Source: a bacterium
GTDB taxonomy: Bacteria > SZUA-182 > DTGQ01
Length of the DNA: 44,148 nucleotides
Reading direction: 5' to 3'
Assembly (NCBI GenBank): GCA_040752695.1
Contig: JBFMGO010000001.1
Location: 1-44,148, forward strand
Numbering within the stretch: the first letter of the stretch is position 1; every line of letters begins with the position of its first letter. The notes below the pieces were generated by a model that did no database searches, was not told the origin of the DNA, and saw nothing but the letters and a program-made list of their open reading frames with translations. Made by a program: the position numbers and the translations under genes. This document shows positions 13,793 to 34,308 of the stretch, piece after piece.

Positions 13793-13802
13793 AGCCGCAA
13801 AG

Positions 13803-16329: not shown

Positions 16330-16401
16330 ATGAACGGAAAAGAAAACGGTTTTACTCTCATAAAGCTAAGAGAGAGGATTTATGATGAAAAAGATAAATG
16401 A
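16330..16401 (+). pseudogene. Possible type IV prepilin N-terminal remnant
   Basis: GGAG RBS then MNGKENGFTLIKL, one base change (GAG to AAG) from GFTLIEL; no hydrophobic helix follows. Confidence 0.4.
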
Positions 16402-19400: not shown

Positions 19401-21919
19401 TAATATCTAGCCATACGATAGCGGCTCAATTTGCAATAGATACCTACACACTCGACATAACTCCATCAGGCACAGGAATAGGAACGGTCACGAGTTCCCC
19501 ATCAGGCATAGACTGCGGCCTTGACTGCACGGAAGACTACCCGCAGGGCACAGTGGTCACCCTCTCAGCCAACCCGGATGCAGGTTCAACCTTTACCGGC
19601 TGGTCAGGCGGAGGGTGCAGCGGCATGGAAACATGCCAAGTAACCATGAATGCGGATATGGTCATAATCGCAACCTTTAATGGATGCATCTTTCAGAATT
19701 GTCAAGACTGCCATGCGAATATGACTGATACCGCAAGCCATGCTCTTCACCTTGGGGCGGATGCTCGCGGAACATCGATGAGCTGTACGGACTGCCACAG
19801 TGGGGATAAGCTGGAGGATCCATGCCTGCCCTGCACCAGGGTATTCGCTGATGACGAGCCCCTGGTCCGGACTGCCGTCTGCGATAGTTGTCACGGCCCG
19901 GATGGGGTTTTTGACGGCTCGGATGATCCTGTGATCGGAGCCAAGGCCAACTGGCCGGGCGGAGTCTATCAACAGCCCGACGGTCTGGAGCTAAAGCCCG
20001 GCCTGGAAAACTGGTGTGCAGGCTGCCACGATAACGGTTCAGCAGCCTGCGCTGGTGTATCCGCTCCCAATGTTATGGGCGATAACTCCACCTATGGCTA
20101 CAACATTACCGGCCACAGGATTACCTGTACAGCCTGCCATAAGGCAAGCATGCCCCATATCGATGGCAGGGCCCGTACGTATTCCCATGATTCCAATCCA
20201 TTCGATCCCGATGATTCGAATAATTACCAGAACGGCTATCGCCTGAGCATTTCCATGACCATTCCATTGGGTGTCGGGCCTCTTGGAGGGAGCGCTCCGG
20301 AGCGGTTTGCCCTCTGCTTTTCCTGCCACAACTACGACCAGATTATGGACACTGCTGCTCCTTTTAGCACCAATTTTCAGGATGACGGGATCAACCGGCA
20401 CAGATCCCATCTCACGGCGGGGCGATATGCCTGGGATTCAGACTGGGATTATCTCAAGGCACCCGATGAAATCATCGTCGACAACGTGCAGGTACTCTTT
20501 ACCGGTGACTGGCCTTCCTCTACGGCAGTGGGAGGATATTATGGAACCGACTATCAGTGGCATACAGCAGGAGATGGTACAGGCTCCGCCACCTGGACTG
20601 CGCTTCTTCCCCAAAGCAGAGACTACAAGGTCTATGCCCGATGGACAGCAGATACTGACAGGGCCAATAACGCCCGCTATGCCATTACCTATGATGGCGG
20701 CACCTTTACTGCCAGCGTGGATCAAAGGACAGGCGGAGGCACCTGGACACTTTTGGGAACCTTCTTCTTTGTCGAGGGAACTTCGGGCTATGTCCAGCTT
20801 TCCGACCTAGCCGATGGGGTAGTCGTGGCCGATGCGGTCAAATTCGGCGACCCTCTGGTTGAATCCCTCATCAGTTGTCCTGCCTGCCACAATGTGCACG
20901 GATCTCCCAATCCGGCCATGATCCGCCACGGAGAACTGATCAGTACCCCCGGAAGCTCCGATAAGGTACCGGCTTTACATTATCGCTGGTATAAGGCGGA
21001 TGGATATACCCCCACGATCTTTGGGCAGGAAAGCGCTTATGCCGATATGCCTCTTCTGGGTGGTGTCGGAGGTGGTACTCTGGAAGAGAGCATGGTCTGT
21101 GACTGCTGCCACAGCGGGCCAAGCCCGATCAAATATGGAAGGACCTATCAGGCCCTGCCTCTGCCCGCAGGCTCCTGGCAAAGACCGGCCCTGCCTCCTT
21201 CGATTCGCCAGTTAAGCCCGCAGGCAGGCAGTCAGGATGTGGCCGCAGATCGCACCTTACGCTTTCTGCTTCTCTCCAACGGTCAGGATGCACTCGACTG
21301 GACCAGCTTTTCCATCTCCCTTCAAGGAGACCTCGGCTATTCGCAAACCTATACAGATGAAGACGCCGGCGCGGTTTCCGTTTCAGGAACCTCTTCCTGC
21401 TATTGGGTAAGTGTTGATCCCGGCATAGATTTCGGTGACCGGGAGCGGATTACCGTGACCGTGTCTATTCAGGATGAGGCCGGACACACCCTGACTCCGC
21501 CATCCTGGGCTTTTACTACCTCTTTGCCGGCTATCTGGAGGACTCCTCAAGGGGTCCTTTCTGATAACCTTTTCTGGATGCCGGAGTGTCTTATCGATGA
21601 TCTGCCTGAGACTGGCAATATGTACACTCCCTTTCCCAGCCACTGGGTGATTTTCGATCTGGGTCAAAGCTGCCAGGTAACCCATGTCCGTCTGCTTCTA
21701 TCTCCAGCTTACTCAGCCAGGTTGTGGACCATCTCTGTCAGCGACGATCCGGATAATTTTGGCCCTGCGGTCAAGACCAATTGGCCGGCTCAGCCCGATC
21801 CGGCAGGAACAGATACTGAGATTACGGCCAAACAGGGACGATACCTTAAACTCTCTGTCGGCATGGGACCCTTGGAGAAAAATATGCTCCTTGAAGTAGA
21901 CTTTGCCGCGGGGAATTAA
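16382..21919 (+). CDS. Large secreted multiheme (8 CxxCH) cytochrome c with beta-propeller repeats, Ig/InlB-B-like repeats, a golvesin/xanthan-lyase CBD-like insert, an Ig-like domain and a discoidin-like C-terminus
   Basis: 14 SIAIDSNNKVHISY-type repeats; YTVTPSAGAGGSISP repeats; CQDCH, CTDCH, CDSCH, CAGCH, CTACH, CFSCH, CPACH and CDCCH; EIIVDN...VVADAVKF; WVIFDLG...GRYLKL. Signal peptide LKLLLLVFAVFLFAALPSLSFA, so the true start may be TTG 16523. Confidence 0.85.
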   Translation: MMKKINDLVRDLLLSGNLKHETRNWFAADSRKLKTEGSFYWKPETRNLKLLLLVFAVFLFAALPSLSFAAWTIESVDAPKYFEQMSPRSIAIEKTTNRPHIAYGGDHLYHAYYDGTQWRYEIIDNSPSVGKYASIAIDSNNKVHISYYDYVNRSLKYATNLSGSWVISEIDSYADAGLGCSIALDSNDKVHISYMNWVIRSLKYATNASGAWITATVDSSVQVGDTTSLAIDSSNGIHISYHDSTNQHLKYATNTSGSWVTSTVDSAYLVGGWSSIAIDSNKKIHISCRDYGNDDLKYVTNTSGAWVATTLDSMGQVGIYTSLAIDSTNKVHIGYYDFTNGDLKYITNVTGAWVRSIIDSAGNVGVYPSIIIDSSNKVHISYGGQYSGDLKYTTNVSGSWVISTVDHGSNEGRYNSIAVDSNNKIHISYSGNNNLRYATDASGAWVTSTIDSGDDGSYVGLFSSIAVDSNNKVYISYQDYPNRGLKYATNASDSWTTSTIYPNGGSYTSIALDSNNKVHISFENNGLKYITNISGAWTVTSIDSPQIGATSIAIDSNNKVHISYYDRTNLDLKYATNVSGSWVNYVIDSSEDKGEGCAIALDSNDKVHISYRDRSSHKLRYATNMSGSWVTSIIESIEALQTSIAVDENNKVHIGYLNYVNGDLKYATNVSGLWTTSTVDSIGIVGWYPSIVLDKNNIVHISYYDYGNEDLKHAFADTIPPITTALPQGGIYNSAQSVTLSCNDDTGSGCNATYYCYGSDCTPTTAYSGVITISSSTSLRFYSLDIAGNSEQTKTEIYTIAYAVTPSAGAGGSISPSTPQTVNHGSTTSFTITPDAGYHIVSVAGCGGTLSGNTYTTGPITADCSVSAIFAIDTYTVTPSAGAGGSISPSTPQTVNHGSATSFTVTPDAGYHIVSVTGCGGTLSGNTYTTGPITADCSVSAIFAIDTYTVTPSAGAGGSISPSTPQTVEYNSTISFTIIPDPGYHIADVIVDGSSIGAVTTYTFTNIISSHTIAAQFAIDTYTLDITPSGTGIGTVTSSPSGIDCGLDCTEDYPQGTVVTLSANPDAGSTFTGWSGGGCSGMETCQVTMNADMVIIATFNGCIFQNCQDCHANMTDTASHALHLGADARGTSMSCTDCHSGDKLEDPCLPCTRVFADDEPLVRTAVCDSCHGPDGVFDGSDDPVIGAKANWPGGVYQQPDGLELKPGLENWCAGCHDNGSAACAGVSAPNVMGDNSTYGYNITGHRITCTACHKASMPHIDGRARTYSHDSNPFDPDDSNNYQNGYRLSISMTIPLGVGPLGGSAPERFALCFSCHNYDQIMDTAAPFSTNFQDDGINRHRSHLTAGRYAWDSDWDYLKAPDEIIVDNVQVLFTGDWPSSTAVGGYYGTDYQWHTAGDGTGSATWTALLPQSRDYKVYARWTADTDRANNARYAITYDGGTFTASVDQRTGGGTWTLLGTFFFVEGTSGYVQLSDLADGVVVADAVKFGDPLVESLISCPACHNVHGSPNPAMIRHGELISTPGSSDKVPALHYRWYKADGYTPTIFGQESAYADMPLLGGVGGGTLEESMVCDCCHSGPSPIKYGRTYQALPLPAGSWQRPALPPSIRQLSPQAGSQDVAADRTLRFLLLSNGQDALDWTSFSISLQGDLGYSQTYTDEDAGAVSVSGTSSCYWVSVDPGIDFGDRERITVTVSIQDEAGHTLTPPSWAFTTSLPAIWRTPQGVLSDNLFWMPECLIDDLPETGNMYTPFPSHWVIFDLGQSCQVTHVRLLLSPAYSARLWTISVSDDPDNFGPAVKTNWPAQPDPAGTDTEITAKQGRYLKLSVGMGPLEKNMLLEVDFAAGN
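18794..19285 (+). repeat. 219-bp (73-aa) near-identical intragenic tandem repeat, about 2.2 copies
   Basis: accccatcggctggagcaggtggcagtat begins at 18794, 19013 and 19232. Confidence 0.9.
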
Positions 21920-22050
21920 CTCCGGGCAAGGTCGATAAAGCGAGTCCGGCAGGTGCCTTTTAGGGTAAGCGAGCCTGACCTCATTGAGAATATGAAGGAG
22001 AATAATGCCATGAAAAAAAGGATCTTCAGTTCATAAGATCCGGCCATACA

Positions 22051-22449
22051 TCACCTGCCGCTCATGAGTATGTATCCCCTCCACAAGCCATGCAGGTTGC
22101 AGTATCCCCTGACCATGACGGGGGCTCCCCGCCGATCGAACAGAGCAGAGGGAGTATCTCCGGGACTGAGAAACTGGCGGCATGTCCTTTCCTCACCAAT
22201 GACCTCGATCCACTCTACATAATGCCTTTGCTCCATGGGATGGCGCTCGCAGATCCCGACCCTTACGGCAAGACCCTGAGGCACCGGTTCAAGCACAGGG
22301 ATATGTTCCGCCCTGATGGCTTCACATCTACTCTCCATACAGTGCTTCATAAATTGGCCGCAGCAGACAAGCTGCCCTGAACCTCCACGGGTTATTTCAA
22401 CAATGGTTTCACAAAATTCACATTTGTAGATCTGGAATCTCTTTGTCAT
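22051..22449 (-). CDS. dfx: Desulfoferrodoxin (2Fe superoxide reductase), variant active-site loop
   Basis: Centre I YKCEFC...LVCCG; centre II HIP, HPM, HY and YCNLHGLW. Start MTKRFQIYKC at 22449 rather than 22620. Confidence 0.85.
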   Translation of the reverse strand: MTKRFQIYKCEFCETIVEITRGGSGQLVCCGQFMKHCMESRCEAIRAEHIPVLEPVPQGLAVRVGICERHPMEQRHYVEWIEVIGEERTCRQFLSPGDTPSALFDRRGAPVMVRGYCNLHGLWRGYILMSGR

Positions 22450-22664
22450 TTTTCGTATCCTTGCAGTATTTTCGGCACCTATCGAAGGCGGAAATGACTT
22501 CCTTGCCGATTTCACGATAAATTGTTCTTGCCAGGCTTTCCCGAAGTTGCTTTTAGAGCCTCCCGATAAATAGATTGTCATATATCCATATGAATCAAAT
22601 TTTCTCCCTGGATATGACAAGGGAAGGAAACGGTGACAATATCTGATGATGAGAGAGTTATTTT

Positions 22665-24176
22665 ATGCCCAAGGCAGCAGGTAGCCGACCCATAAAAAAA
22701 ATTCCATATATAATAGCCACCGGCTTTACAACGGCCTTTCTGGGAGATGAGCGTTCTCTCAGGGAATTTATTGTCGGGGATGCGATAAAGAGCGCCCTTG
22801 AGCGGAAAGGTAAAAATACGCTTCTCTATCTCATCAACGACAGCTACGATCCTTTGAATTACCGTCAGCTCAGGGTGGGGGTTAATAAGGACGAGAATCT
22901 CCTGAGCCGTTTTGAGCCCTATTGCGGCCGCCCCATTTCCGAGGTTCCTGATCCTTTTGGCTGCCATGAGAATTACTCTCAGCATTTTGCCCGGGCACTT
23001 ATCAAGAGGCTGCATTCGCTCGATATTTATCCGGTGCTGCTTGATTCTTATCACACCTACCGCAAAGGGTATTATGCGGATTTTATCTCCACAACCTTCG
23101 AGAACTATGCGAAAATTCAAGAGCTGCTTTCGCAGCGCTTTAAGAATTTTACCATGAAGAATCTGTTTCGGGTTCAGTGCCCGAAATGCTCATGCCTCGA
23201 TGCCACCCATATCCTCAAGGTGAGCGGCCATGAGCTTCGATTCGGATGTGAGCGGTGCGGCAGGTCGGACATGGTGCAGGGGATTGACGAGGTTCGCGGA
23301 AAGTTGAGCTGGAAGCTTGATTGTGCGGCTCGTTGGAATCTCTATGGGATCGACCTGGAGACCTTTTCCAAGGCACACATTGCCGAACTGGGGAGCTTTG
23401 AGATATCCCGCTTTATATCTCAAGAGTTCTACGGAGGGAAAGTACCGACTGTTGCGCGCTATGGTGATGTAAGATTGAGCAGGGAACTTTCCTGCAAACT
23501 TCTTAAAATACTCCCTCCGGAGATTTTCAAGGCGCTTTTCTCTACCAGTCGCATCCGGGATCTGATTCTGACCAAAGATTATGTGGAACATTTTTGCCGG
23601 GGATACATAGTCCGGCCTGGAATGAGCTACATCGATTACGTGCGCAGTGAGCTTCCCAAGCGTGCCATTCATGAGAAGAGCCTGCATGAGCCGGACCTTG
23701 AGCCGCTTATACCTTTCGATGCGCAAGAGGAGCATATCTCGGAGAAGGCTCTTGTAACATACGGAAATCACTTTTCCAAGTTTTACTATGGCAGGGAGTA
23801 TGAGATTCGCCTGCCTGATGCCGATCTTATTGGCTCTGCTGACCAGGCAACGGCAAAGATGGCCCTGGAAGTGATTCGTTATGCCCTTTTTGTGCGCAAG
23901 AGCCGGGGGACAAATGGCCATGAGGATACCCATGACCTGATCAGGTCGTATCTCCATTCAGAGAAACCCTCTCCCCAGCTCTTTCGATACCTGCGGAGAA
24001 TACTTGGTCAGGCCGACGGCCCCAATATCGTAACCTTGCTGGCTATTCTGCCCAGAGATTATCTGAAGGTGATTCAGACCATGCTTGGTTATTATGCCGG
24101 GCAGAGTCATGCTGTCAAGGTTCAGAAGGGAGAAAACGATCCTGAGGAGAGTTTTTCGGCCCTCTATGAAAGTTAA
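22665..24176 (+). CDS. Class I lysyl-tRNA synthetase-like protein lacking HIGH and KMSKS motifs
   Basis: LysRS1 hallmarks LREF, NDSYDPL, GRPISEVPDPFGCHENYSQHF, Zn-ribbon CPKC/CERC, GKLSWKLDCAARW and GIDLE. The HIGH position reads GDERS and no KMS motif is present. Confidence 0.8.
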   Translation: MPKAAGSRPIKKIPYIIATGFTTAFLGDERSLREFIVGDAIKSALERKGKNTLLYLINDSYDPLNYRQLRVGVNKDENLLSRFEPYCGRPISEVPDPFGCHENYSQHFARALIKRLHSLDIYPVLLDSYHTYRKGYYADFISTTFENYAKIQELLSQRFKNFTMKNLFRVQCPKCSCLDATHILKVSGHELRFGCERCGRSDMVQGIDEVRGKLSWKLDCAARWNLYGIDLETFSKAHIAELGSFEISRFISQEFYGGKVPTVARYGDVRLSRELSCKLLKILPPEIFKALFSTSRIRDLILTKDYVEHFCRGYIVRPGMSYIDYVRSELPKRAIHEKSLHEPDLEPLIPFDAQEEHISEKALVTYGNHFSKFYYGREYEIRLPDADLIGSADQATAKMALEVIRYALFVRKSRGTNGHEDTHDLIRSYLHSEKPSPQLFRYLRRILGQADGPNIVTLLAILPRDYLKVIQTMLGYYAGQSHAVKVQKGENDPEESFSALYES

Positions 24177-24200
24177 TTCAAGCATAGCACGGGGGATTTT

Positions 24201-25037
24201 ATGAAAAGACTGCTAGACGTTCTTTGGCCGGTGTTGTTTTTTGTCATCCTTCTGGGATGCCAGAAGGGGAGTGAGGTTACCAGCCCTGGTCGTCAGGGGA
24301 AAGATTCATCTCTTGAGAGGGTGAATAAAGCTGGCGTCCTGCTGTGGGGAGCGGATGTAATCGGCGGAGTTCCCTATGTGTATGAAGATCCTGAACGCCC
24401 GAACACCTATATCGGTTTTGAGGTAGACATAGCCAGGGCCATTGCCCTGCATCTGGGAGTAAAACAGAAATTAGTTATCAAGGCATGGGACACCCTGATT
24501 CCGGAACTTCAAAAAGAAAGTTTTGATATCGCCATGAATGGCATCGAGGATACGCAGGATCGAAGAAAAATGGTTCTTTTTTCAGACCCCTATTATGTTT
24601 ATTCCCAGCAGATCACGGTGAGGAAGGAAACCGAAGGGATCAGCACCCTGGAGGATCTCAAAGGGAAAACGGTGGGCACTCTTTCCGGAACAGCGGCTGA
24701 AGACATTTTACGAAAGGTCGCAGGGATCGAAGTGAGTATCAACCCGGAAATTATTTACAGTTATCGGGATCTGGAGGATGGCCGTGTGGATGCAGTCATC
24801 CTTGATAAGCCTATTGCCGTGGCCTACGGTGCTTCTAATCCTAAGTTGAAAAATGTGGGAGAGTCTTTTGAAGAGGGCACCTATGTAATCGCTCTGCGCA
24901 AAAGTGACAAGGCCCTTTTAGATGCGATCAATGCTGCCTTGAAGGCCATTAAGGATAATGGTGAACTGGCGGATATTTACCGTAAGTGGGGTATTATGGA
25001 CGAGCATCAGAAGCGTATCGGAGTTATGTCACAATGA
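24201..25037 (+). CDS. Polar amino-acid-binding lipoprotein (SBP family 3), no adjacent permease or ATPase
   Basis: Lipobox ILLGC; GFEVDIA, WDTLIPELQ, FSDPYY and GTLSGT. Confidence 0.9.
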   Translation: MKRLLDVLWPVLFFVILLGCQKGSEVTSPGRQGKDSSLERVNKAGVLLWGADVIGGVPYVYEDPERPNTYIGFEVDIARAIALHLGVKQKLVIKAWDTLIPELQKESFDIAMNGIEDTQDRRKMVLFSDPYYVYSQQITVRKETEGISTLEDLKGKTVGTLSGTAAEDILRKVAGIEVSINPEIIYSYRDLEDGRVDAVILDKPIAVAYGASNPKLKNVGESFEEGTYVIALRKSDKALLDAINAALKAIKDNGELADIYRKWGIMDEHQKRIGVMSQ

Positions 25038-26488
25038 ATGGATATGGTAATTTGATTGGTGATGTCATCTCTTATCGGGGAATTCCCCACGAAGTGATCT
25101 CACCGGTAACAGGCTGTTCCATAGGGATCGTACCTCTGGTCACAAAGGAGGATATCGACCAGGCCCTTTTGGATTTTGCCGAGCGCTCGCCGATACTCCC
25201 GCGAAGGACGGTATTTGCCTTTCTCCAGCGGCTAAAGGAGCAACTTGTGGCCAGACGTGATCTTTTTTTTGAAAAAACCTATCTGGAAACCGGATTTGTC
25301 TCAAGGGACAGCAGGGAGATTATAGACAGCTCGATAGAGTTTTTGAATGATTTCGAGATTTACGTTCAGGACAAAGCTTTCAGGGAGCAGATTATTCGGC
25401 ACTCCTATTCATCAGGGTCAGACCGGGATATCCGGATTACGCAGCGCCCCTTTCACTGTGTTGCAGCGGTTGTTCCGCAGAATGCTTCCCTTTCGCTCAG
25501 TATCACCATTATTGCTTCTGCCCTTTACGCCGGTTCACGTGTTATTCTCCGGCCTTCGCTCCAGAACGGACCTACCGGCGCTCTTCTGGCCGAAGCGGTC
25601 ATGAGAAGTGATCCGCCACCAGGCTCTATAATCATTGCCAATTGCCTGGCCCGGGACTTTGTGGATGCCTGCTGCGCTTCTGAATCCGTGGATCTGATTC
25701 ACTATATTGGAAGCAATCAGTATGCCCAATCGGTTTTCACCCAGGCGTTTAGCGCAGGGAAAATCTGCCTTCTCGATGGCCAGGGCAATGGGCTCCTCTA
25801 CCTGGACGATACCTTCCCTCTGGCGGATGCAGTCAGCATTATCACATCAGGAGCAACACGATATAATGGCGAAACCTGTACTTCCATTAATGGTGTTCTG
25901 ATCAAGGACATTATCTACGAGCCGGTTAAAGAGGCCCTGGTGGATTCTTTTCGAAACCTGCACCTGGGTCCCCCACTGGATCAGGGCATCCATGTCGGCC
26001 CCCTTTTCAGTGAGAAGCAGGCACTTTCACTGCAAAGGATCATTCAGGAAACGCTCGGTGCTCAGGTCCTTTGCGGAGGTGAGAGAGAGGGTGCGTATTT
26101 CAAACCAGCGGTAGTGGAAGGGGTCAATCTCGGTGATCCTATTGTCTGCGAGGGAGTATTTGGCCCTGTCATCTGGATCCGAAGCGTGAGTGAGAGCGAT
26201 CTGTGGGCATGGTTCAAGGGAAACCGGTTCCCCTTGAGTGACACGATCTTGAGCACCAACCACAATCTGATCCGTACCTTTGCTGAAAACTCCAGGGCAG
26301 CCAGGATCTGTGTCAATGAGGACCCGTCCGTGGAGTCTATGTTTGAGCCCTGGGGTGGATACCCGCCCAGTGGGCTGAATCCTGTCTCTGTCTGGGTAGA
26401 AAAATACCGGCAGACCTTCCAATTGGACGGCAGATTGAGGGAAATTATGGCTATCCCGTTTCCGGCATGGCAGGGTGAGAGCGGTTGA
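25034..26488 (+). CDS. Aldehyde dehydrogenase family protein with atypical active-site motifs
   Basis: PQN, YIGS, catalytic Cys in NGETCTS, EGVFGPV and PWGG. The ELGG motif reads DGQG. ATG 25034 overlaps the SBP stop (ATGA). Confidence 0.85.
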   Translation: MNGYGNLIGDVISYRGIPHEVISPVTGCSIGIVPLVTKEDIDQALLDFAERSPILPRRTVFAFLQRLKEQLVARRDLFFEKTYLETGFVSRDSREIIDSSIEFLNDFEIYVQDKAFREQIIRHSYSSGSDRDIRITQRPFHCVAAVVPQNASLSLSITIIASALYAGSRVILRPSLQNGPTGALLAEAVMRSDPPPGSIIIANCLARDFVDACCASESVDLIHYIGSNQYAQSVFTQAFSAGKICLLDGQGNGLLYLDDTFPLADAVSIITSGATRYNGETCTSINGVLIKDIIYEPVKEALVDSFRNLHLGPPLDQGIHVGPLFSEKQALSLQRIIQETLGAQVLCGGEREGAYFKPAVVEGVNLGDPIVCEGVFGPVIWIRSVSESDLWAWFKGNRFPLSDTILSTNHNLIRTFAENSRAARICVNEDPSVESMFEPWGGYPPSGLNPVSVWVEKYRQTFQLDGRLREIMAIPFPAWQGESG

Positions 26489-26574
26489 CGATGAAGAGTT
26501 AAGCAACCACTTACGAATACCAAAAAATCTACCAGATCTTATACCGGATCTTTATAGTTGTTGATAGGCAGGCG

Positions 26575-28476
26575 ATGAGAAGAATCACTTCCTTTTCGAT
26601 AAGAGCCAAGATGATCACTATGGTAGCAGGAGCCCTCCTTCTGGCTATCTTATCAGCCGCTTATGTGATGCGGGGCATGGTTTACCAGAATATCGTGGAT
26701 CAAAAGATGACCACGGCAGATATTCTTACAGCCTCACTGGTCCATGATATCAAATATGAATATGATTTTCGGTCCGGGAATCGGGAAAGCATCAAGGATA
26801 TTATCAGTAAATACCTGACCTACTACCGGGTCATCGAATCCATTTCCTTTTACGATGATAGTTACACGAATATTGCGGATTCCAACCCTGAGAAGGTCGG
26901 GGAAATCACTCAGGACAGGGAATTGGTCAGGGCCATCACTCTGGCCAGACCGAGTCTTGAAATTACCCGGTTGAGCAGTTCCAATCTCGGAATCCGGTCC
27001 ATCTTTCCCATCCTTCGAGGTTCCAGGGTTAAGGCTGCCATTGATATGCATATTTCGATCACGGACATCAAGGCAATCATGTCAGCCATCGATCATCGGA
27101 TCGCCACCATTTTAATATTTACAATCCTGATGGCTTGTGCTGCTCTCTTTATCTTGCTTCGCGGGGTGATTCTCCAAAGACTCAGTCGGCTGATGGAGGT
27201 AACTCGTCAGATTGCGGCCGGCAATTATGATATCCAGGTTAAGGATATACGCAAAGATGAGCTGGGGCAACTGGCTCAGGCCTTCGATCAGATGACCTCC
27301 GAGTTGCAGAAATCGAAGCTGGAGATTGAGGACTACAATCAACACCTGGAGGCCAAGGTACAGCAGGCAACTGCCCAACTCAACCAGGCTTACGAGGACC
27401 TCAAGAATACCCAGAGCCAGCTTGTTTTGAACGAGAAAATGGCTTGCCTCGGTGTCCTTATCGCCGGAATTGCTCACGAAATCAATACGCCCGTAGGTGC
27501 AATACACAATGTGGCCAGAAATCTTGAACAAAGGGTCACTTCTCTTCCAAAGACGCTTGAATCCTTCAAAAAAGACCAGGAGGCATGTATGGATAACCTG
27601 GTCGAGTGTTTTCACGACCTGATACAGGCCTCAGCCGGTGATCAGCAGGTTACCTCCTTCAAGGAGATACGCACGGTCGAGAGCATCCTCAGGGCTCAGG
27701 GAATCAATAATTACAGGAAGATAGCAGGTGTCCTGGGTCAGTTTAACTTTATGGACGCCGATAAGATTACACGATTTGCGAATCTTTTCAAGAGTTCATC
27801 TCTCTTTTCTCTTTTTGAATCCATAGGAAGCATTTCTCAGGCTGCCAGAATCGTCCAGACGAGTTCCAGAAAGATAGAAGAAATCGTTCGGGCACTCAAG
27901 TATTACGCCTATACCGATAAGGATAGAATTGAAATGACTCAATTGAACGAGTCTATCAAAACTGCGCTGGTCTTGCTGAGTAACAGACTGAAGCACTCTG
28001 TAGTTGTTACCACTCAATTGGATCCTGAGCTTCCGAAGATTTCCTGCACCAGCGAGGTTCATCAGATCTGGACCAACCTTCTCAACAATGCCTGTGATGC
28101 CGTGGAAGCTATGGGAGATGGCTATCAGGGAGAAATCCTTGTCTCTACCCAACAAAGGGCTGGAAGAAGCCCCTGTGATAACGGTCAGATCGTGGTCACG
28201 GTAACCGATAATGGAATCGGAATCCCGGAGGATAAGATAGGGAGGATTTTTGACCCCTTCTTCACTACCAAAGACATCGGTAAAGGAACCGGCCTTGGAC
28301 TTTCCATTGTCTCTGGCATCATAAAAAAGCATAACGGAACAATCCGTGTGGAAAGCAAACGTGGTCATACGGTTTTCGAAATCACCTTTCCCATAAAGGT
28401 AGAATTGCCCCACGAGGGTGAGCAGCCTACGGTGAAGCAGGAAACGTTAAGGGAGACAGCGATCAATGCCTACTGA
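26575..28476 (+). CDS. Membrane sensor histidine kinase (periplasmic sensor, HAMP, HisKA, HATPase)
   Basis: Two TM segments; HAMP DELGQLAQAFDQM; H-box IAHEINTP; NLLNNACDA, DNGIGI, FDPFFTTK and GTGLGL. Confidence 0.95.
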   Translation: MRRITSFSIRAKMITMVAGALLLAILSAAYVMRGMVYQNIVDQKMTTADILTASLVHDIKYEYDFRSGNRESIKDIISKYLTYYRVIESISFYDDSYTNIADSNPEKVGEITQDRELVRAITLARPSLEITRLSSSNLGIRSIFPILRGSRVKAAIDMHISITDIKAIMSAIDHRIATILIFTILMACAALFILLRGVILQRLSRLMEVTRQIAAGNYDIQVKDIRKDELGQLAQAFDQMTSELQKSKLEIEDYNQHLEAKVQQATAQLNQAYEDLKNTQSQLVLNEKMACLGVLIAGIAHEINTPVGAIHNVARNLEQRVTSLPKTLESFKKDQEACMDNLVECFHDLIQASAGDQQVTSFKEIRTVESILRAQGINNYRKIAGVLGQFNFMDADKITRFANLFKSSSLFSLFESIGSISQAARIVQTSSRKIEEIVRALKYYAYTDKDRIEMTQLNESIKTALVLLSNRLKHSVVVTTQLDPELPKISCTSEVHQIWTNLLNNACDAVEAMGDGYQGEILVSTQQRAGRSPCDNGQIVVTVTDNGIGIPEDKIGRIFDPFFTTKDIGKGTGLGLSIVSGIIKKHNGTIRVESKRGHTVFEITFPIKVELPHEGEQPTVKQETLRETAINAY

Positions 28477-30856
28477 AATCGACCAAGATAATGTATCCAT
28501 ACTACCTTCGCCGGAGCCTGAAGAGCATCTTGTCATTTGTGTGGATGACGACCAGAACTTTCTCAAATCGCTGGAGTTTTTTCTTCCTGAGAAGATCAAT
28601 CAGGAAGGAGATGCCCAGTCGTCGCAAGGGCTCTCTGTCTGGTACCGGTTTCTTTTCTTTGACAATCCCTTACATGCTCTCGACACTCTGAAGGAGCTTA
28701 CGGAAGACCGGGAAATTGTGGCTATGGTCATCAGCGACCAGAAAATGCCCGACATGAAAGGGACAGAATTACTCGCTGAGGCCAAAAAGATTTCCCATCA
28801 GAGCATTCGGGTTCTCCTCACCGGCTACGCAGGTGTGGAATCGGCTATTACAGCCATCAATGAAAACCTGCTGGACAAGTATCTCACCAAGCCAATAGAG
28901 GATGAAAACGACTTCATTGTGAGTATCAGGCATCTGCTTCAAAGATTCCGGATGCAGGGAACTATTATCGCACAGGCCAGGGTTATTCATGAACTGTACC
29001 AATTTTCAAATGTTTTGAATGGGATTGAGGATTTTCAAAAGACACTGGACTCTATTGTTTCTTTCACTGAGGAGATGCTCAGATGCCAGCGCATATCCAT
29101 TATGCTGGATGATGGCGGTCTGCTTCGGATCAAAGCATCCAAGGGCATTCCGAAAGAGGTAGTCGATTCAACGAGCATACCGATTGGAAATCGGATATCA
29201 GGAGAGGTTTTCCAATCCAGGAAAGCGATTTTGGTCAAAGACCTCGATGAGGTACCCTACCTGGACAGCCAGGTCGATGTCAGCGCCCAATCCTTTATCA
29301 GTGTACCAATCCTTCTGGCTGGTCTGTCTTCGGGAGATCATCCTCTGGGGGTGATCAACATCACTCAGAAAGAGGACAATCTGCCCTTTACCGAAAACGA
29401 TCTGGAGATATTGACGTACATCGCCAATACCGCATCCATCGCCATTCATAATCAAATCAATCGCATCCAACTCCAAATGGCCTATGTGGAAACCAGGACT
29501 CAGGCTGCCGCTCTTGAATATCAGGCCATGCACGATGCCCTGACCGGACTGCCGAACCGGAACATGCTCAAGGAGCGAATGCAGGAGGCTATTCTCGTTG
29601 GACATCGTGAAAAGATACCGTTCAGTCTTCTTATTATGGACCTGAATCATTTTAAAGAAATTAATGACACACTCGGACACCACAGTGGGGACCTTCTCCT
29701 TCAGCAGGTCGGGAGAAAACTCCAGGAGGTAGTGCAGGGAATGCCCGGAGCGGACGGAGCCCCTGTGGCGCCGGACCAAGATATGCTGGTCCGTCTGGGA
29801 GGTGACGAATTTGCCGTGCTGCTGCCGGGTGCAGGGATGGAAAGGTCGGTCCAGGTTGCAGCCAGGATCGTGGACGCATTCAGTCATCCATTCAATCTTG
29901 AAGGCTTGTCACTCGAGATCAGTATGGGCATTGGTCTGACCCTCTATCCGGACCATGGAGAGGAGGTCAATCTTCTCATTCAAAGGGCTGACGTGGCCAT
30001 GTATGTGGCCAAGCATTCCGGAATCGGCTACAGTATCTATGACTCCAAAACCGATCAATATAATCATCGCCGCCTGGCCATGGTGAGCGGGCTGCGTCAG
30101 GCTATAGAGGATAATCAGTTGGTCCTTCACTATCAGCCCAAGGTGGATCTTGTGCTTGGCCGCATCTCCGGCGTGGAGGCACTGGTACGATGGCAGCATC
30201 CTCAGTATGGCTTTATGCCGCCGGATCAGTTTATTCAGTTGGCGGAGCAGACCGACCTGATCAAGCCCCTCACCCTTTGGGTATTGAATGAGGCACTGCA
30301 TCAATGCAGCCAGTTATGCCAGGATGGCTTTGAAATCAGCATGGCTGTTAATCTGTCCGCACGAAACCTTCAGGATGAAGGCTTCCCTGATCAGGTGAGG
30401 GAATTGCTTGAGAAGTGGGGTGTGAAGCCAGAGCTCCTGGAACTGGAGATTACCGAGAGCACGGTAATGGCCAATCCGGAACTGGCCATGGTGATTCTTA
30501 AGCGCCTGAGTGATATGGGCATCCAGCTTGCCATTGACGATTTTGGCACCGGTCACTCTTCCTTGGCCTATATCAAGTTGCTGCCCGTTCACGAGATCAA
30601 GATCGATAAATCCTTTGTAATGAGTATGGGAGTGAACACCAATGATGTCATGATCGTAAATACAGCCATAGATCTCGGCCACAATCTCGGACTCTCGGTT
30701 GTGGCCGAAGGAATTGAGAGCAAGGAAATATATGACCGTCTGACTAATCTTGGCTGCAATGTGGGGCAAGGGTATTTCATGAGCCGTCCACTTCCGGCAT
30801 CACAGCTTATGAGCTGGATTATCGATTCACCATGGGGCGTGAAAAGACCCTCTTAA
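28466..30856 (+). CDS. REC-GAF-GGDEF-EAL c-di-GMP response regulator
   Basis: CVDDD, SDQKMP, LLTG and TKP; GAF; HDALTGLPNR and RLGGDEF; EALVRW, LEITE, IDDFGTG and VAEGIE. Confidence 0.95.
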   Translation: MPTEIDQDNVSILPSPEPEEHLVICVDDDQNFLKSLEFFLPEKINQEGDAQSSQGLSVWYRFLFFDNPLHALDTLKELTEDREIVAMVISDQKMPDMKGTELLAEAKKISHQSIRVLLTGYAGVESAITAINENLLDKYLTKPIEDENDFIVSIRHLLQRFRMQGTIIAQARVIHELYQFSNVLNGIEDFQKTLDSIVSFTEEMLRCQRISIMLDDGGLLRIKASKGIPKEVVDSTSIPIGNRISGEVFQSRKAILVKDLDEVPYLDSQVDVSAQSFISVPILLAGLSSGDHPLGVINITQKEDNLPFTENDLEILTYIANTASIAIHNQINRIQLQMAYVETRTQAAALEYQAMHDALTGLPNRNMLKERMQEAILVGHREKIPFSLLIMDLNHFKEINDTLGHHSGDLLLQQVGRKLQEVVQGMPGADGAPVAPDQDMLVRLGGDEFAVLLPGAGMERSVQVAARIVDAFSHPFNLEGLSLEISMGIGLTLYPDHGEEVNLLIQRADVAMYVAKHSGIGYSIYDSKTDQYNHRRLAMVSGLRQAIEDNQLVLHYQPKVDLVLGRISGVEALVRWQHPQYGFMPPDQFIQLAEQTDLIKPLTLWVLNEALHQCSQLCQDGFEISMAVNLSARNLQDEGFPDQVRELLEKWGVKPELLELEITESTVMANPELAMVILKRLSDMGIQLAIDDFGTGHSSLAYIKLLPVHEIKIDKSFVMSMGVNTNDVMIVNTAIDLGHNLGLSVVAEGIESKEIYDRLTNLGCNVGQGYFMSRPLPASQLMSWIIDSPWGVKRPS

Positions 30857-30868
30857 AGGTTTCTCTCA

Positions 30869-32851
30869 ATGGAAAAGACACCCCGGCATGACGTTATCCT
30901 CAAGATGAAAGAGGAATTACCCTCTTTACCTACAGTCGTAACACGAATTCTGAACATTGTCCTGGATGACAAAAGCTCTGTCAAGGATATTTCGGAGGTT
31001 GTCCGTGTAGATCAGGCACTGGCCTCAAAAGTACTGAGGGTAGTCAATTCCGCTGCTTACGGCCTGCGGGAGAAGGTCAGCACGATAGACCACGCCATGA
31101 CTATCCTGGGCTTTGATACTCTCAAGAATCTGTTTTTATGTCTTTCCATTTTTGATAATTTGTCGCAGGAAAATCAGACAGGATATTTATTTCCTAAATC
31201 ACAGTTCTGGTGTCATTCTCTTGCTGTGGCTATCGTGGCCAAAGGTATAGCTGTGCTCAAAGATTACCCCCATCCCAACGAGGCCTATGTGGCAGGTCTC
31301 ATGCATGATATCGGAAAGGTCATCATCGAGCAGATCATGGCTGTCGAATACCGCAACTATTTGAGAAGTCTCAGTATGAATCCAGACATGTCTCTGCGCT
31401 TTGAGGAAGAGAATCTTTCCCTGAATCATGCTTCAGTCGGTAAACTGGCTTTCGAGAAGTGGAACCTGCCGACCGTCTTGCAGAAAGCCGTCGAGTCCCA
31501 TCATGGAGCGCAAAGCAGTCATGGAGAACTTCATGAGCTTGCAGCCATCGTTTCCGTAGCTGATTTCATTTGCTGGACGCAGGCCCTCGGCTCGTTCAAC
31601 TTTTTTTTCCACCCCACACTCGATCCTCGGGTGGAGAAGATCGTCAATCTGAAAGATCTGAAAATTGAAATCCTTCTGGAGGAAATGAATAAGGAAGTAA
31701 CTCAGAATGCGAAGATCTTCAACCTAAAGATAGATGATCTCAAAGGTTTCAGGGAAGCACTCCAGAGAGCAAACTTTGAACTTGGAAGGATCAATTCCCT
31801 TTATGACGATACCAGAAAGCGGCTGGAAAAGCATGTCCATGAACTTAACACCTTGAATACAATCATCTATAAGGCACGTGAAACGCTGGAACCCAGCCAG
31901 GTAATTCAAAATGTCCTTCAGGGAGTAGGGGAAGGTTTTGGCTTTCCCAGAATCATCTGGTTCTCTGTCGATGAAATGGGAAAGAGTATTATCCCCAGAG
32001 CAACCTATGGCGAGTTTCAAGGTAATTTGCCCATCACTACGGTAGGGTGCACCTGGGACGAAGAAATTGGCACCCCGTTATCTACCTGTATTCAAAAGAA
32101 AAAGATCATCTGTCTTAAAAACGATCAGGAGGATGAGGCAGGAGCCTGCCTTTTGAAAAACCTGCAAAGCACTGAATTACTTCTTGTTCCCATCAGCACT
32201 GACCAGGGAGTCAGTCATCTGTTACTCATTGATAACGGGGAAGGAATTGTCGCTATCTCTTCCGATACAGTCAAAGTAATAGATATTTTGTCCTTGAATC
32301 TGGGAATGGCACTGGAAAATGCGGAACTCTTCCAGCGTACTGCTCAAATGGCTGTTCTCGATCCTTTAACCGGCATCTATAACCGCCGTCAACTGGACTC
32401 ATCGTTGAAGAATGAAATTAACAGGTCAGTTCGCTTTCGGCATTCATTTTCAATTGCTCTTTTTGATATCGATCATTTCAAATCAATCAACGATACGTAT
32501 GGCCATCAGGCAGGAGATCTGATCTTAAAGGACGTGTCATCAGTCATTAAAGACAATTCCCGGAATACTGACATTGTCGGAAGGCTCGGAGGGGATGAAT
32601 TCCTGGTCATTTTACCCAATACCGAAGCGAAGGGTTCTTTTACCTTTGCAGAAAGGGTTCGGCTCATCGTGGAGAAATACGGTTTACTCAGGCAGAAGAA
32701 TTTTCCAAATTGCCAGATCACCCTCAGTATCGGACTGGCTGAATTCAATACCTCCCTGGATACTCCCGAAAGGCTTTTGCATAAAGCGGATAAGGCACTC
32801 TATCAATCCAAACAAAAGGGCAGAAACAGGATCAGTGTGTTTAAGGAATAA
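30869..32851 (+). CDS. HDOD-GAF-GGDEF diguanylate cyclase
   Basis: LPSLP, VVNSAAYG and AGLMHDIGK (HDOD); DPLTGIYNRR; RNTD I-site followed by RLGGDEF. Confidence 0.93.
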   Translation: MEKTPRHDVILKMKEELPSLPTVVTRILNIVLDDKSSVKDISEVVRVDQALASKVLRVVNSAAYGLREKVSTIDHAMTILGFDTLKNLFLCLSIFDNLSQENQTGYLFPKSQFWCHSLAVAIVAKGIAVLKDYPHPNEAYVAGLMHDIGKVIIEQIMAVEYRNYLRSLSMNPDMSLRFEEENLSLNHASVGKLAFEKWNLPTVLQKAVESHHGAQSSHGELHELAAIVSVADFICWTQALGSFNFFFHPTLDPRVEKIVNLKDLKIEILLEEMNKEVTQNAKIFNLKIDDLKGFREALQRANFELGRINSLYDDTRKRLEKHVHELNTLNTIIYKARETLEPSQVIQNVLQGVGEGFGFPRIIWFSVDEMGKSIIPRATYGEFQGNLPITTVGCTWDEEIGTPLSTCIQKKKIICLKNDQEDEAGACLLKNLQSTELLLVPISTDQGVSHLLLIDNGEGIVAISSDTVKVIDILSLNLGMALENAELFQRTAQMAVLDPLTGIYNRRQLDSSLKNEINRSVRFRHSFSIALFDIDHFKSINDTYGHQAGDLILKDVSSVIKDNSRNTDIVGRLGGDEFLVILPNTEAKGSFTFAERVRLIVEKYGLLRQKNFPNCQITLSIGLAEFNTSLDTPERLLHKADKALYQSKQKGRNRISVFKE

Positions 32852-32931
32852 TATGAAGGATTCCCCTAAAGAGCCTGGCTATTTCCTCATAAAGCGGGGT
32901 CAGCATGATCTTATGCTTTTTTCACAGTGAC

Positions 32932-34308
32932 TTATCTCGGCGGGTCCGGGGGATCAGGGAGCGTTTTCAGGGTTTCGCGATATGTATTCTCTATATCGGG
33001 AATGATCTCCTTCAGGATGGTATCTTCAGATAGAGGGAGGATGCCCCTATCCGTTTCCTCAAAATCTGTCCCAAAATCCGTTAACCCGACATCGTGTACG
33101 CCTGCATCGCCTTCCATAAGGTCGATGGGGAGCGCAGCATCCGCCTCCGGCGTTTGCGGCTGCTGCTGCAAGATGGCACCATCCTGATGTTCTTCCGGCA
33201 CCTTTTGTTCTTCCAGTCCTTTTGGTCTTTCACTGGGGGGTTGTTCCTGGCCCAATTCCTGGTCCGGCTCCAGAGAAAGTGTCCCCCGGCCTTCCAGGGG
33301 AAATTCACCCCGAGCCGGCTGGTCTACTGCCGGTCCTGATTGCCCTGTTACTGCTGCTGGTCCTGATTGCCCTCCTGCTGTCTGCCCCGTCTGCCCCTCT
33401 TCAGAGGAGAGCTCTTCTCTGGCCGGTAGTCCTGCCTTTTTTTCCTCTGGTGCTTCTTTCTTTTTACTCTCATCCGATTTCGCATCTCCATCTTCCGATT
33501 GGGCAGCATCATTCTTTTGCCTGGCCTGGCCGGCTTGTCCGGCTTGTCCGGCAGGGGCTTTATCCGGGGCTTTCCATTCGGTGTTCATGGTTGTTTCCCT
33601 GATAAGTCCTTCCAATTCCTCCGGGGTAATCTTCATTTTGTCCTGCGGTATCTCGTTTTCCCTTATCCATGACTGCTCCATGGATTCGAGATAAACCTCA
33701 CCGGGAATGTCAGGGTCACTGCTTCGTACCACAAGATGCCCTGACTGGCAGACCACCTGAGTGATATCCTGGCCGGTTTCCGGCTGCTCGCTGGCAGAGA
33801 CGATCTCCTCTGTGCCCACTACACCGGCTACGGCAGTCTTGGTTTCCACCTCGAATTTATCATCAGGGCTGCTGAATTTGTCCACTACTGCCCGGATCTT
33901 CCCGACAGAAAGCTTGAAGAAGGATTGATTCAAGGATTTTTGCGGTGCATACAGAACTGCCTTGACGATCAGGCAAGAGCCACCTCCAAGGTGAATGGTG
34001 GAGCGATTGATAAAGGAGATCTTAACCTTGGCTCCTTTTTCCGTAGTAATTTCGTCGCGGGGATAGACCTTGTCCCCCTGCTGAATTGTATTTGCCGTCT
34101 TTTGGAGGTCATGCCGCACGGAGGCCAACCCCTCGACCATGTCTATGGTGCCGACGGGTATGGATGCGGCCAAAACCGGCAGGGGCAGGCCAGGAAGAAG
34201 AATACCGGCCAGAAAAGCAAGGCCGGCCAGAAAGGTAAGGCCAGCCACCAGGGTCTTTCCGCGAGCTCCTGTGGAAAGGATCTTACTCCGGGTGTCACAT
34301 TTGGCCAT
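32932..34308 (-). CDS. Exported FecR-domain protein with long acidic low-complexity tail
   Basis: Signal/TM segment; GDKVYPRDEITT, GKIRAVV and FEVETKTAVAGVVGT; RBS GAAGGAG 9 nt before ATG 34308 (alternative TTG 34326). Confidence 0.85.
   Translation of the reverse strand: MAKCDTRSKILSTGARGKTLVAGLTFLAGLAFLAGILLPGLPLPVLAASIPVGTIDMVEGLASVRHDLQKTANTIQQGDKVYPRDEITTEKGAKVKISFINRSTIHLGGGSCLIVKAVLYAPQKSLNQSFFKLSVGKIRAVVDKFSSPDDKFEVETKTAVAGVVGTEEIVSASEQPETGQDITQVVCQSGHLVVRSSDPDIPGEVYLESMEQSWIRENEIPQDKMKITPEELEGLIRETTMNTEWKAPDKAPAGQAGQAGQARQKNDAAQSEDGDAKSDESKKKEAPEEKKAGLPAREELSSEEGQTGQTAGGQSGPAAVTGQSGPAVDQPARGEFPLEGRGTLSLEPDQELGQEQPPSERPKGLEEQKVPEEHQDGAILQQQPQTPEADAALPIDLMEGDAGVHDVGLTDFGTDFEETDRGILPLSEDTILKEIIPDIENTYRETLKTLPDPPDPPR

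Follow-up and report, generated by a model that had tools for sequence, protein, structure and literature searches.

A laterally spread, probably sensory cassette joins a class I lysyl-tRNA synthetase paralogue and an aldehyde dehydrogenase-like protein to a binding-protein-dependent two-component system

What does a protein that resembles a lysyl-tRNA synthetase do in the middle of a signalling operon? The question is raised by six co-oriented genes in a 44,148-nucleotide stretch of contig JBFMGO010000001.1 (assembly GCA_040752695.1, GTDB lineage Bacteria; SZUA-182; DTGQ01), which we call the window. In order, they encode a paralogue of class I lysyl-tRNA synthetase (pLysRS), a lipoprotein of the SBP_bac_3 family of solute-binding proteins (SBPs), a member of the aldehyde dehydrogenase (ALDH) superfamily, a sensor histidine kinase, a response regulator with a receiver (REC) domain, and an HDOD-GGDEF protein. 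The original prediction took all six as one candidate new signalling system, in which the two cytoplasmic enzymes make or modify a lysine-derived small molecule, the lipoprotein binds it, and the kinase relays the signal to cyclic di-GMP (c-di-GMP). The coordinates, spacings and domains on which it was built were borne out by our checks of open reading frames (ORFs), gene junctions and domain content. Our comparison with other genomes indicates that genes 1 to 5 are one laterally spread sensory cassette and that gene 6 is a local addition. As had been supposed, the combination appears to be new, since open-access text, the scope of our search, yielded no description of either the cassette or the paralogue family.

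To describe the distribution of the gene order, one genome per species was scanned with pLysRS. Of the 34 loci returned, 23 (L010-L032) encode the paralogue at 41-71% identity, and the other 11 are ordinary class I LysRS at 25-33%; synteny was then scored by tblastn of the six window proteins against the 23 paralogue loci. ALDH lies downstream of pLysRS in 22 of the 23, the exception being L014, and the SBP gene sits between them in 20 (exceptions L014, L027 and L029). Wherever a locus offers enough DNA, the kinase gene comes next (19/19; L017 ends inside the ALDH gene) and is followed by the gene for a REC protein (18/18; L031 ends inside the kinase gene). The carriers comprise 10 Eisenbacteria, 4 Nitrospirota, 5 Gammaproteobacteria or proteobacteria, 1 member of Krumholzibacteriia and 3 unclassified genomes, and a metagenome contig (L044) likewise holds the cassette in identical order. 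Relative to the window proteins, those encoded outside the genus are 63-75% identical in the SBP, 40-64% in ALDH, 46-63% in the kinase and 41-60% in pLysRS. Because the identical gene order recurs in other phyla, the arrangement is not due to chance, and a chance neighbourhood is ruled out as an explanation. The flanking genes vary between loci, which indicates that the five genes move as one unit. Conservation in other genomes was the point on which the original prediction had staked itself, and for genes 1 to 5 it is strong; we consider it very probable that these genes form a conserved functional signalling cassette.

The same comparison removes the sixth gene from the core. A second member of the genus carries all six genes at 72-79% identity, and an HDOD-GGDEF gene follows the REC gene solely in two genomes of this genus, partially at the contig end in L010 and in full, at 75% identity, in L052. 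The HDOD-GGDEF protein is a lineage-specific addition outside the conserved core, so that of the proposed six-gene system five genes stand as a core across phyla and the sixth is seen in this genus only.

Some details of individual loci deserve mention. The kinase match at L012:4180-6002 and the paralogue match at L031:10001-11400 each fall into two overlapping pieces, which may reflect frameshifts or assembly errors. The paralogue match in the second genus member (G002:C33:79095-80555) contains one TAA, which may lie at the edge of the match; the L052 alignment spans residues 11-500. Scanning with ARAGORN found no tRNA gene near the cassette in 22 of 24 loci. The two calls obtained lie inside cassette coding DNA: a tRNA-Trp in the REC gene of L019 (15973-16057) and a tRNA-Asp in the ALDH gene of L030 (10936-11026). 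Both are probably false positives, called in GC-rich DNA.

What, then, is the first protein of the cassette? More than 100 full-length homologues of pLysRS share 43-74% identity, and where the sources name them they are called hypothetical or 'lysyl-tRNA synthetase class I'. The nearest cluster in the ESM Atlas (76 members, 'tRNA synthetases class I (K) domain-containing') gives no functional lead, and in a library clustered at 50% identity the family amounts to about 54 clusters at E <= 1e-30, some of which are fragments. The sole solved sequence relative is the P. horikoshii LysRS1 (1IRX; profile alignment, E 8.3e-30). An AlphaFold2 (AF2) model of pLysRS, with a predicted local distance difference test score (pLDDT) of 87, aligns with 1IRX over 429 residues, model residues 10-476 against chain residues 17-523 [VIA, Z 29.9, root-mean-square deviation (rmsd) 6.2; Foldseek, E 9.2e-22], and shows the whole-length LysRS1 architecture, including the C-terminal helical domain; Pfam returned nothing usable on the C-terminal half. 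The next structural matches are BshC (4wbd; Z 19.5, rmsd 3.3, 270 residues aligned), followed by CysRS and MshC, and GluQRS is also a neighbour.

The joint alignment of 24 pLysRS paralogues with 16 canonical LysRS1 sequences shows where the two groups part. At least 14 of the 16 canonical enzymes agree at 84 positions; of these, the paralogues retain 36, have exchanged 7 for a different conserved residue and have lost 5. The HIGH region reads H-x-G-N in 16/16 canonical sequences and D-E-R-T/S in 24/24 paralogues (L-G-D-E-R in all 24), the His and Gly of HIGH being replaced in pLysRS by D28 and R30, two of the 7 switched positions. Most of the 5 deleted positions belong to the KMSKS-type loop (MSSSKG in LysRS1), whose conserved G, S and G columns are gaps in 24/24 paralogues. 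The four-Cys knuckle is retained (C172, C175, C195 and C198). T22, R33, E34, W216, H238 and Y266 vary little or not at all among the paralogues; their counterparts in 1IRX are T29, R40, E41, W218, H240 and Y268, the presumed lysine-pocket residues of that structure. By these sequence criteria pLysRS is a full-length class I LysRS paralogue without both ATP-binding signatures, and because HIGH and KMSKS are both absent, it should be unable to activate lysine with ATP in the known way.

Could gene 1 nevertheless be a second working lysyl-tRNA synthetase? Its Pfam tRNA-synt_1f match and its whole-length LysRS1 fold would be expected of one, but both signature motifs are missing in 24/24 paralogues, and the protein scores 142 bits against TIGR00467, below the cut-off of 147.55, with residues 13-270 alone matching. 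In a quick tree, the family forms one clade on a single long branch from the canonical enzymes (SH-aLRT 100). A canonical LysRS1 is already present on another contig of the window's genome, and four carrier genomes hold no second class I LysRS-like gene besides the paralogue with the query used; the separate canonical gene in the one case and the lone paralogue in the others argue that pLysRS is not a recent copy of a host gene. On the missing motifs, the score below the cut-off and the separate clade, we reject this explanation, whose probability is practically nil. Compared with 1IRX, pLysRS therefore shares the overall fold, the knuckle and the aligned residues of the presumed lysine pocket, and differs in its D-E-R for HIGH, its deleted loop, its sub-equivalog score and its phylogenetic position.

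A clue to its role comes from a fusion. One of the 120 listed homologues (P0042) bears an intact C-terminal EAL domain, and it comes from a full cassette, that of L044, which encodes pLysRS-EAL, SBP, ALDH, the kinase and a REC-PAS-HisKA-HATPase-REC protein. Regulated phosphodiesterases are usually built in this way, with an N-terminal ligand-binding module ahead of EAL, and the likeness speaks for a role of the paralogue in sensing or regulation. No fusions longer than 881 aa were found at E <= 1e-30, which is weak evidence. Net charge and isoelectric point of the N- and C-terminal halves have similar medians in the paralogues and in canonical LysRS1 and are uninformative on tRNA binding.

The KMSKS loop is also missing from two groups of class I LysRS paralogues that are more distant (P0135-P0155 and P0165-P0178). 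One keeps G-D-E-R for HIGH (29-35% identity), and the other has A-D-N-Q or a similar sequence (21-27%). When loci of these sister groups were sought, 20 genomes of the window's phylum gave known copies alone, and none turned up in 401 genomes of the phylum to which G044 belongs.

Synthetase relatives with other tasks offer precedents of two kinds. MshC, GluQRS and PoxA keep ATP-dependent activation, whereas the pLysRS family has lost both class I ATP motifs. What pLysRS has in common with MshC, BshC, GluQRS and PoxA/EpmA is the recruitment of an aminoacyl-tRNA synthetase catalytic fold to a new task. HisZ, in turn, is a non-catalytic synthetase paralogue coupled to an enzyme, HisG. PoxA/EpmA is a class II LysRS paralogue recruited to a new task (PMC3950694), and the HisRS-like domain of GCN2 is a synthetase homologue without aminoacylation that is coupled to a kinase and reads amino-acid or tRNA status (PMC11606652). 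We liken pLysRS to HisZ and GCN2 on account of its motif loss, the presumed pocket that it keeps and its fusion to EAL in one homologue; that pLysRS binds lysine or tRNA would be an extension of this analogy, and both HisZ and the GCN2 domain are class II HisRS relatives, GCN2 being a eukaryotic Ser/Thr kinase.

The second protein of the cassette is an SBP of the polar or basic amino-acid-binding type and the most conserved of the cassette proteins, with a mean column identity of 65% across 21 orthologues (alignment A3). Among solved structures it comes closest to AncQR (4zv1, E 1.5e-41) and to 6svf, an amino-acid-binding protein of the Thermotoga type, and it is also near arginine- and glutamine-type binding proteins. 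R121 and D202 occur in 21/21 orthologues, and the lipobox Cys, C20, in at least 90%; in the relatives, the Arg and Asp presumably bind the alpha-carboxylate and alpha-amino groups of the ligand.

Is this SBP an ordinary transport part of an ABC system whose other genes lie elsewhere, so that its position next to the kinase means nothing for signalling? In favour of this, PMC11113362 reports two Pseudomonas examples of adjacent sbp and kinase genes whose products do not interact. However, the 14 large ORFs in the rest of the window include neither a permease nor an ABC ATPase, as had been claimed, and the polar-amino-acid permease model TIGR01726 has 0 matches in the whole genome (96.57% complete), while matching in 11 of 14 control genomes. 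With no such permease match in the genome, the SBP qualifies as a true orphan, and this part of the original prediction is upheld by both the window ORFs and the genome-wide search. In addition, the protein keeps its slot in 20/23 loci and its 63-75% identity across phyla, and modelling with the kinase, given below, is weakly positive. We therefore reject the SBP of a distant ABC transporter on the absent permease match and the conserved slot, and hold this explanation to be highly improbable; the trivial readings taken together are very unlikely.

The kinase is built from a first transmembrane helix (TM1), a periplasmic alpha/beta domain of ~140 aa, TM2, HAMP, a coiled coil, a dimerization and histidine phosphotransfer (DHp) domain with H301, and a catalytic and ATP-binding (CA) domain. 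In the AF2 model (pLDDT 75), the periplasmic domain is a long helix followed by an alpha/beta sandwich and appears PDC/sCache-like; the Pfam matches of this part are weak and below the cut-offs (sCache_4 E 0.003, dCache_3 E 0.012). Between the DHp helices, the model places a helical insertion (342-406) of four to five short helices, which is conserved in 18/18 orthologues (alignment A4) and on which Pfam found nothing usable. From its modelled position at the tip of the hairpin, this insertion is a plausible docking site.

Does the SBP contact this kinase? The SBP gene adjoins a gene for a kinase with a periplasmic domain in the window and in 19 further loci. Following the suggestion to model the two together, we predicted the complex of kinase residues 33-176 with the mature SBP (21-278) from separate alignments. 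The score of 0.38, against 0.01 for the best control, weakly favours contact. Of 80 solved complexes, 58 attained the mark, as did 2 of 110 mismatched pairs, but at scores up to 0.60 no more than 7 of the 80 solved complexes did so, together with both of the passing mismatches. Between runs, at least 53% of contacts are shared, and the pLDDT of the partner is at least 85.

Known systems combine the same elements in other ways. Kinases of the BvgS/EvgS type carry fused SBP_bac_3 (Venus-flytrap) domains, and the periplasmic domain of LuxQ is of the PAS/PDC type. The cassette resembles BvgS/EvgS in using the SBP_bac_3 family as the periplasmic input of a histidine kinase; its SBP, in contrast to their fused domains, is a separate lipoprotein, and the kinase has a sCache-like domain of its own. 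With LuxP-LuxQ and TorT-TorS, as reviewed in PMC11113362, the cassette shares a transporter-less periplasmic binding protein beside a membrane kinase and a REC output; the same paper gives neighbouring genes in 10 of 11 characterised SBP-kinase couples, a fair prior for contact in the cassette. It differs from LuxP-LuxQ and TorT-TorS in having an SBP_bac_3 lipoprotein for its SBP and two enzyme-like cytoplasmic proteins tied into the operon; contact between SBP and kinase is suggested here by a weak modelling score. The cassette is thus a binding-protein-dependent two-component system with two fixed enzyme-like accessories, one of which founds a new synthetase-paralogue family.

What the system controls differs from carrier to carrier. 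The REC protein of the window has the Asp, Thr and Lys context of a receiver and intact GGDEF and EAL motifs. We scanned 16 complete REC proteins: 6 end in GGDEF-EAL (L010, L013, L021, L025, L026 and L028), 9 have at their end a kinase module with HATPase_c and, in most, HisKA (L011, L015, L016, L018, L019, L022, L024, L030 and L032), one (L023) has no named output, and none of the 16 has a DNA-binding domain. Because the REC outputs vary among loci, c-di-GMP is the output of this lineage rather than a defining feature. The proposed route from kinase to c-di-GMP therefore holds for the regulator found here, which carries GGDEF-EAL, but not as a conserved output, with a kinase module in 9/16. 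The lack of DNA-binding output also means that pLysRS and ALDH are not simply the regulon of the two-component system.

The third protein is a clear member of the ALDH superfamily (Pfam Aldedh, E 5e-61, 207 bits against a cut-off of 23) that reaches none of the NCBIfam equivalogs. We compared its residues by profile alignment to the ALDH 8hap, taking the functional roles of the aligned positions from textbook knowledge. All 20 orthologues have the catalytic Cys (C282) and the oxyanion Asn (N150), which align with the corresponding motifs of 8hap, and many further active-site residues are likewise invariant in 20/20 (alignment A2). Three positions depart from the pattern, each in 20/20 orthologues: the general-base Glu position is Asp248, aligning with the Glu of the ELGG-type motif of 8hap, the equivalent of Lys192 (the Lys of the K-P-S motif) is Arg173, and the column of Glu399 (the second Glu of E-E-x-F-G-P) is Gly. 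There is also an extra C-terminal tail, which is conserved. The cassette ALDH thus has the Aldedh fold, Cys and oxyanion Asn in common with the hydrolytic ALDHs (8hap and the lactaldehyde and succinate-semialdehyde dehydrogenases), and differs from them in Glu268 to Asp, Lys192 to Arg, Gly in the Glu399 column and the tail. We take the D248 column to be that of Glu268 (ALDH2 numbering), the general base and hydrolytic Glu. That all members have Asp in its place points to a changed deacylation step and not to decay.

How might these parts work together? We propose that the SBP lipoprotein would bind a periplasmic basic or polar alpha-amino acid, or a derivative keeping the alpha-amino-acid end, and that the ligand-loaded SBP would dock on the periplasmic domain of the kinase. 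In the cytoplasm, pLysRS would act as a non-adenylating lysine receptor, analogous to HisZ or to the HisRS-like domain of GCN2, with tRNA-Lys as a possible further ligand; together with its constant partner ALDH, it would report the intracellular state of lysine or a lysine aldehyde to the kinase, plausibly via the DHp insertion. The kinase would then phosphorylate the REC-GAF regulator, which would turn c-di-GMP over in this genome and feed a second kinase in other carriers. We prefer this division of labour, with a cytoplasmic lysine co-sensor, because the ATP motifs were lost with the pocket retained, an EAL fusion exists, the outputs have no DNA-binding domain, the DHp domain has an insertion and the SBP still resembles an amino-acid binder; the preference is tentative, at somewhat less than even likelihood. 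The lysine theme of the original prediction persists here in so far as it is consistent with the retained residues of the presumed pocket. The claim that the two cytoplasmic enzymes make a metabolite fares less well, since the loss of the ATP signatures and the EAL fusion point at least equally to ligand sensing.

Several observations weigh against a co-sensor. With its Cys282, its Asn150 and the other invariant active-site residues, the ALDH looks like a working enzyme and not a passive sensor, and the co-sensor model assigns it no defined reaction. EamA-family transporters, which flank 8 loci and are on the same strand as the cassette in L011 and L024, favour a molecule that is made and exported. 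In two Nitrospiria loci the ALDH and pLysRS pair occurs without this SBP and kinase, beside a TonB-dependent receptor and an unrelated SBP instead. All carriers are uncultivated. Neighbouring sbp and kinase genes, moreover, are not always functionally linked (PMC11113362).

In one of these Nitrospiria loci, L027, a barrel gene precedes those for pLysRS and ALDH, and a TonB-dependent receptor and then the unrelated SBP (PF04392) come after them, with a divergent HAMP-PAS-GGDEF gene and a PilZ gene in the vicinity. The barrel belongs to a wider pattern, since a secreted protein of ~240-370 aa is encoded directly upstream of pLysRS in 12/23 loci, and three further loci have less than 700 nt of upstream DNA; the protein looks like an outer-membrane barrel, with a weak Gcw_chp match below the cut-off in 2 of 3 tested. 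Taken across the loci, pLysRS and ALDH are the tightest pair, repeatedly joined to envelope uptake or binding proteins and membrane signalling proteins.

These neighbours give some substance to the idea of the original prediction, an autocrine or metallophore-like loop. Here pLysRS and ALDH would make or modify a lysine-derived molecule, which would be exported (by EamA where present), re-enter through the barrel or a TonB receptor, and be reported to the kinase by the SBP. The catalytic Cys and Asn of ALDH and the new invariant D-E-R triad of pLysRS look like catalysis, and the Glu-to-Asp replacement fits a non-hydrolytic ALDH if the Glu has the role that we assume. The putative barrel directly upstream in 12/23 loci (on its weak, sub-cut-off match), the EamA genes at 8 loci, two of them on the cassette strand, and the persistence of the pair in L027, where SBP and transducer are replaced by non-homologous analogues, point the same way. 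The Lqs and Cqs systems are known examples in which synthase, kinase and regulator genes are clustered. However, without HIGH and KMSKS the known ATP activation of lysine would be impossible for pLysRS; there is no universal exporter, and none in the window; and an EAL fusion would be odd for a biosynthetic enzyme. The SBP also keeps the Arg and Asp that presumably hold the alpha-amino-acid end, and because R121 and D202 are kept, an autocrine ligand would still have to be an amino acid. The EamA and outer-membrane neighbours at many cassettes are compatible with export and re-entry of the proposed lysine-derived molecule; we regard the loop as possible though on balance unlikely.

A further alternative concerns the fate of the sensed compound. 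The cytoplasmic pair may be a metabolic adaptor that processes the sensed compound after its uptake, as the Lsr enzymes do with autoinducer 2 (AI-2), without touching the kinase and co-transcribed with it for dosage only. The apparently active ALDH, judged by its residues, is in keeping with such a role, the arginine-catabolic genes astD and astB stand directly upstream in two Oleiphilaceae loci, and EamA could be an importer. But an importer is not conserved, the regulators have no DNA-binding output with which to induce a catabolic operon, and the interleaving of the SBP between the enzymes in fixed order, as well as the EAL fusion, speaks for tighter integration than dosage alone, which makes an adaptor rather unlikely.

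Two of the loci just mentioned, and a third, are of interest for their surroundings. In the Oleiphilaceae (L025:741-3556 and L026:6905-9732), an ordinary ALDH gene and the AstB gene lie directly before the cassette on the same strand; these genes (astD-astB, AstB being succinylarginine dihydrolase) belong to the arginine succinyltransferase pathway. In a gammaproteobacterial metagenome-assembled genome, a lone pLysRS paralogue (L014:781-2259) without ALDH, SBP or kinase adjoins a gene for a Crp/Fnr-type regulator and a norC-norB-norQ-norD-like nitric-oxide-reductase cluster.

Within and beside the co-sensor model, a link to tRNA can be considered. Other synthetase paralogues usually shed the tRNA-binding half or the C-terminal domain, and because pLysRS keeps the whole LysRS1 architecture including the C-terminal domain, it may have a tRNA-linked role. 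It is a distinctly unlikely case, in our estimate, that pLysRS still binds tRNA-Lys and so allows either a lysyl-aldehyde signal or a readout of the charging state. In the first of these, pLysRS may hand the lysyl group of lysyl-tRNA, charged by the genuine LysRS, to Cys282 of ALDH for reductive release as lysine aldehyde; this may amount, by analogy, to the chemistry of glutamyl-tRNA reductase rebuilt on an ALDH scaffold, with a translation-derived signal sensed by the SBP and kinase. In the second, pLysRS may read the charging of tRNA-Lys as the HisRS-like domain of GCN2 does, passing translation status to the histidine kinase and c-di-GMP.

The coordinates of the six genes and of the presumed promoter region are collected in the table. 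Read directly, genes 1 and 2 lie 24 nt apart, genes 2 and 3 overlap in an ATGA (25034-25037), genes 3 and 4 lie 86 nt apart, genes 4 and 5 overlap by 11 nt, and 12 nt separate genes 5 and 6; an in-frame GTG at 24986 would lengthen the ALDH frame upstream. Opposite-strand genes bound the cassette, for desulfoferrodoxin upstream and for a FecR-domain protein downstream. Scans of the cassette region for promoters and terminators did not rise above shuffled sequences (15 promoters found against 13.2 expected), so the promoter is placed by gene layout alone. Rfam gave 0 matches at the gathering threshold in window positions 21000-34000, and the region therefore holds no lysine or c-di-GMP riboswitch.

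Table. Features of the cassette region, in positions of the window
Feature	Position	Strand	Basis
pLysRS (gene 1), 503 aa	22665-24176	+	tRNA-synt_1f on residues 12-272 only (Pfam)
SBP_bac_3 lipoprotein (gene 2), 278 aa, lipobox Cys20	24201-25037	+	Pfam, NCBIfam
ALDH-superfamily protein (gene 3), 484 aa	25034-26488	+	Pfam Aldedh
Sensor histidine kinase (gene 4), 633 aa	26575-28476	+	HAMP, HisKA, HATPase_c (Pfam, NCBIfam)
Response regulator (gene 5), 796 aa	28466-30856	+	REC, GAF, GGDEF, EAL (Pfam, NCBIfam)
HDOD-GGDEF protein (gene 6), 660 aa	30869-32851	+	GGDEF motif and RxxD site
Presumed operon promoter region, intergenic, ~215 nt	22450..22664	.	between divergent desulfoferrodoxin gene and pLysRS gene

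The rest of the window holds other genes of note. Two giant, presumably secreted proteins flank the cassette: one of 1845 aa (16382-21919, +) with the domains Golvesin_C, Flg_new_2 and CHB_HEX_C_1, and one of 1808 aa (34323-39749, -) with TSP_3, PKD, HYR, NosD and TPR, followed by a FecR-domain protein. Farther upstream, a P-type cation ATPase of 1104 aa (4928-8242, -) has an N-terminal PTS EIIA-2 domain (residues 6-148), an unusual fusion that suggests ion pumping regulated by a PtsN-like module. At 12860-15713 (+), a 665-aa ORF without a Pfam match starts within the gene for a radical SAM protein (310 aa), and upstream lie the genes for an FG-GAP-repeat protein (907 aa) and a matchless 217-aa ORF.

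Most sensor kinases are without a known signal, and accessory proteins are one cause. In the cassette described here, a synthetase look-alike and an ALDH are built firmly into a two-component system that depends on a binding protein, and this association has been kept through transfer between phyla. It adds to the catalogue of synthetase-like proteins a family of class I LysRS paralogues without ATP motifs, together with two more distant sister groups. If pLysRS is a receptor for lysine or tRNA-Lys, bacteria would have in it an equivalent of pseudo-synthetase sensors such as HisZ and GCN2, and amino-acid or translation status would be linked to c-di-GMP and phosphorelays. If it forms an enzymatic pair with ALDH, the class I synthetase fold would be put to a new, ATP-independent use in the cassette, which would be the source of a new signal or metallophore. 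Either way, it offers a defined set of five proteins that is testable in vitro.

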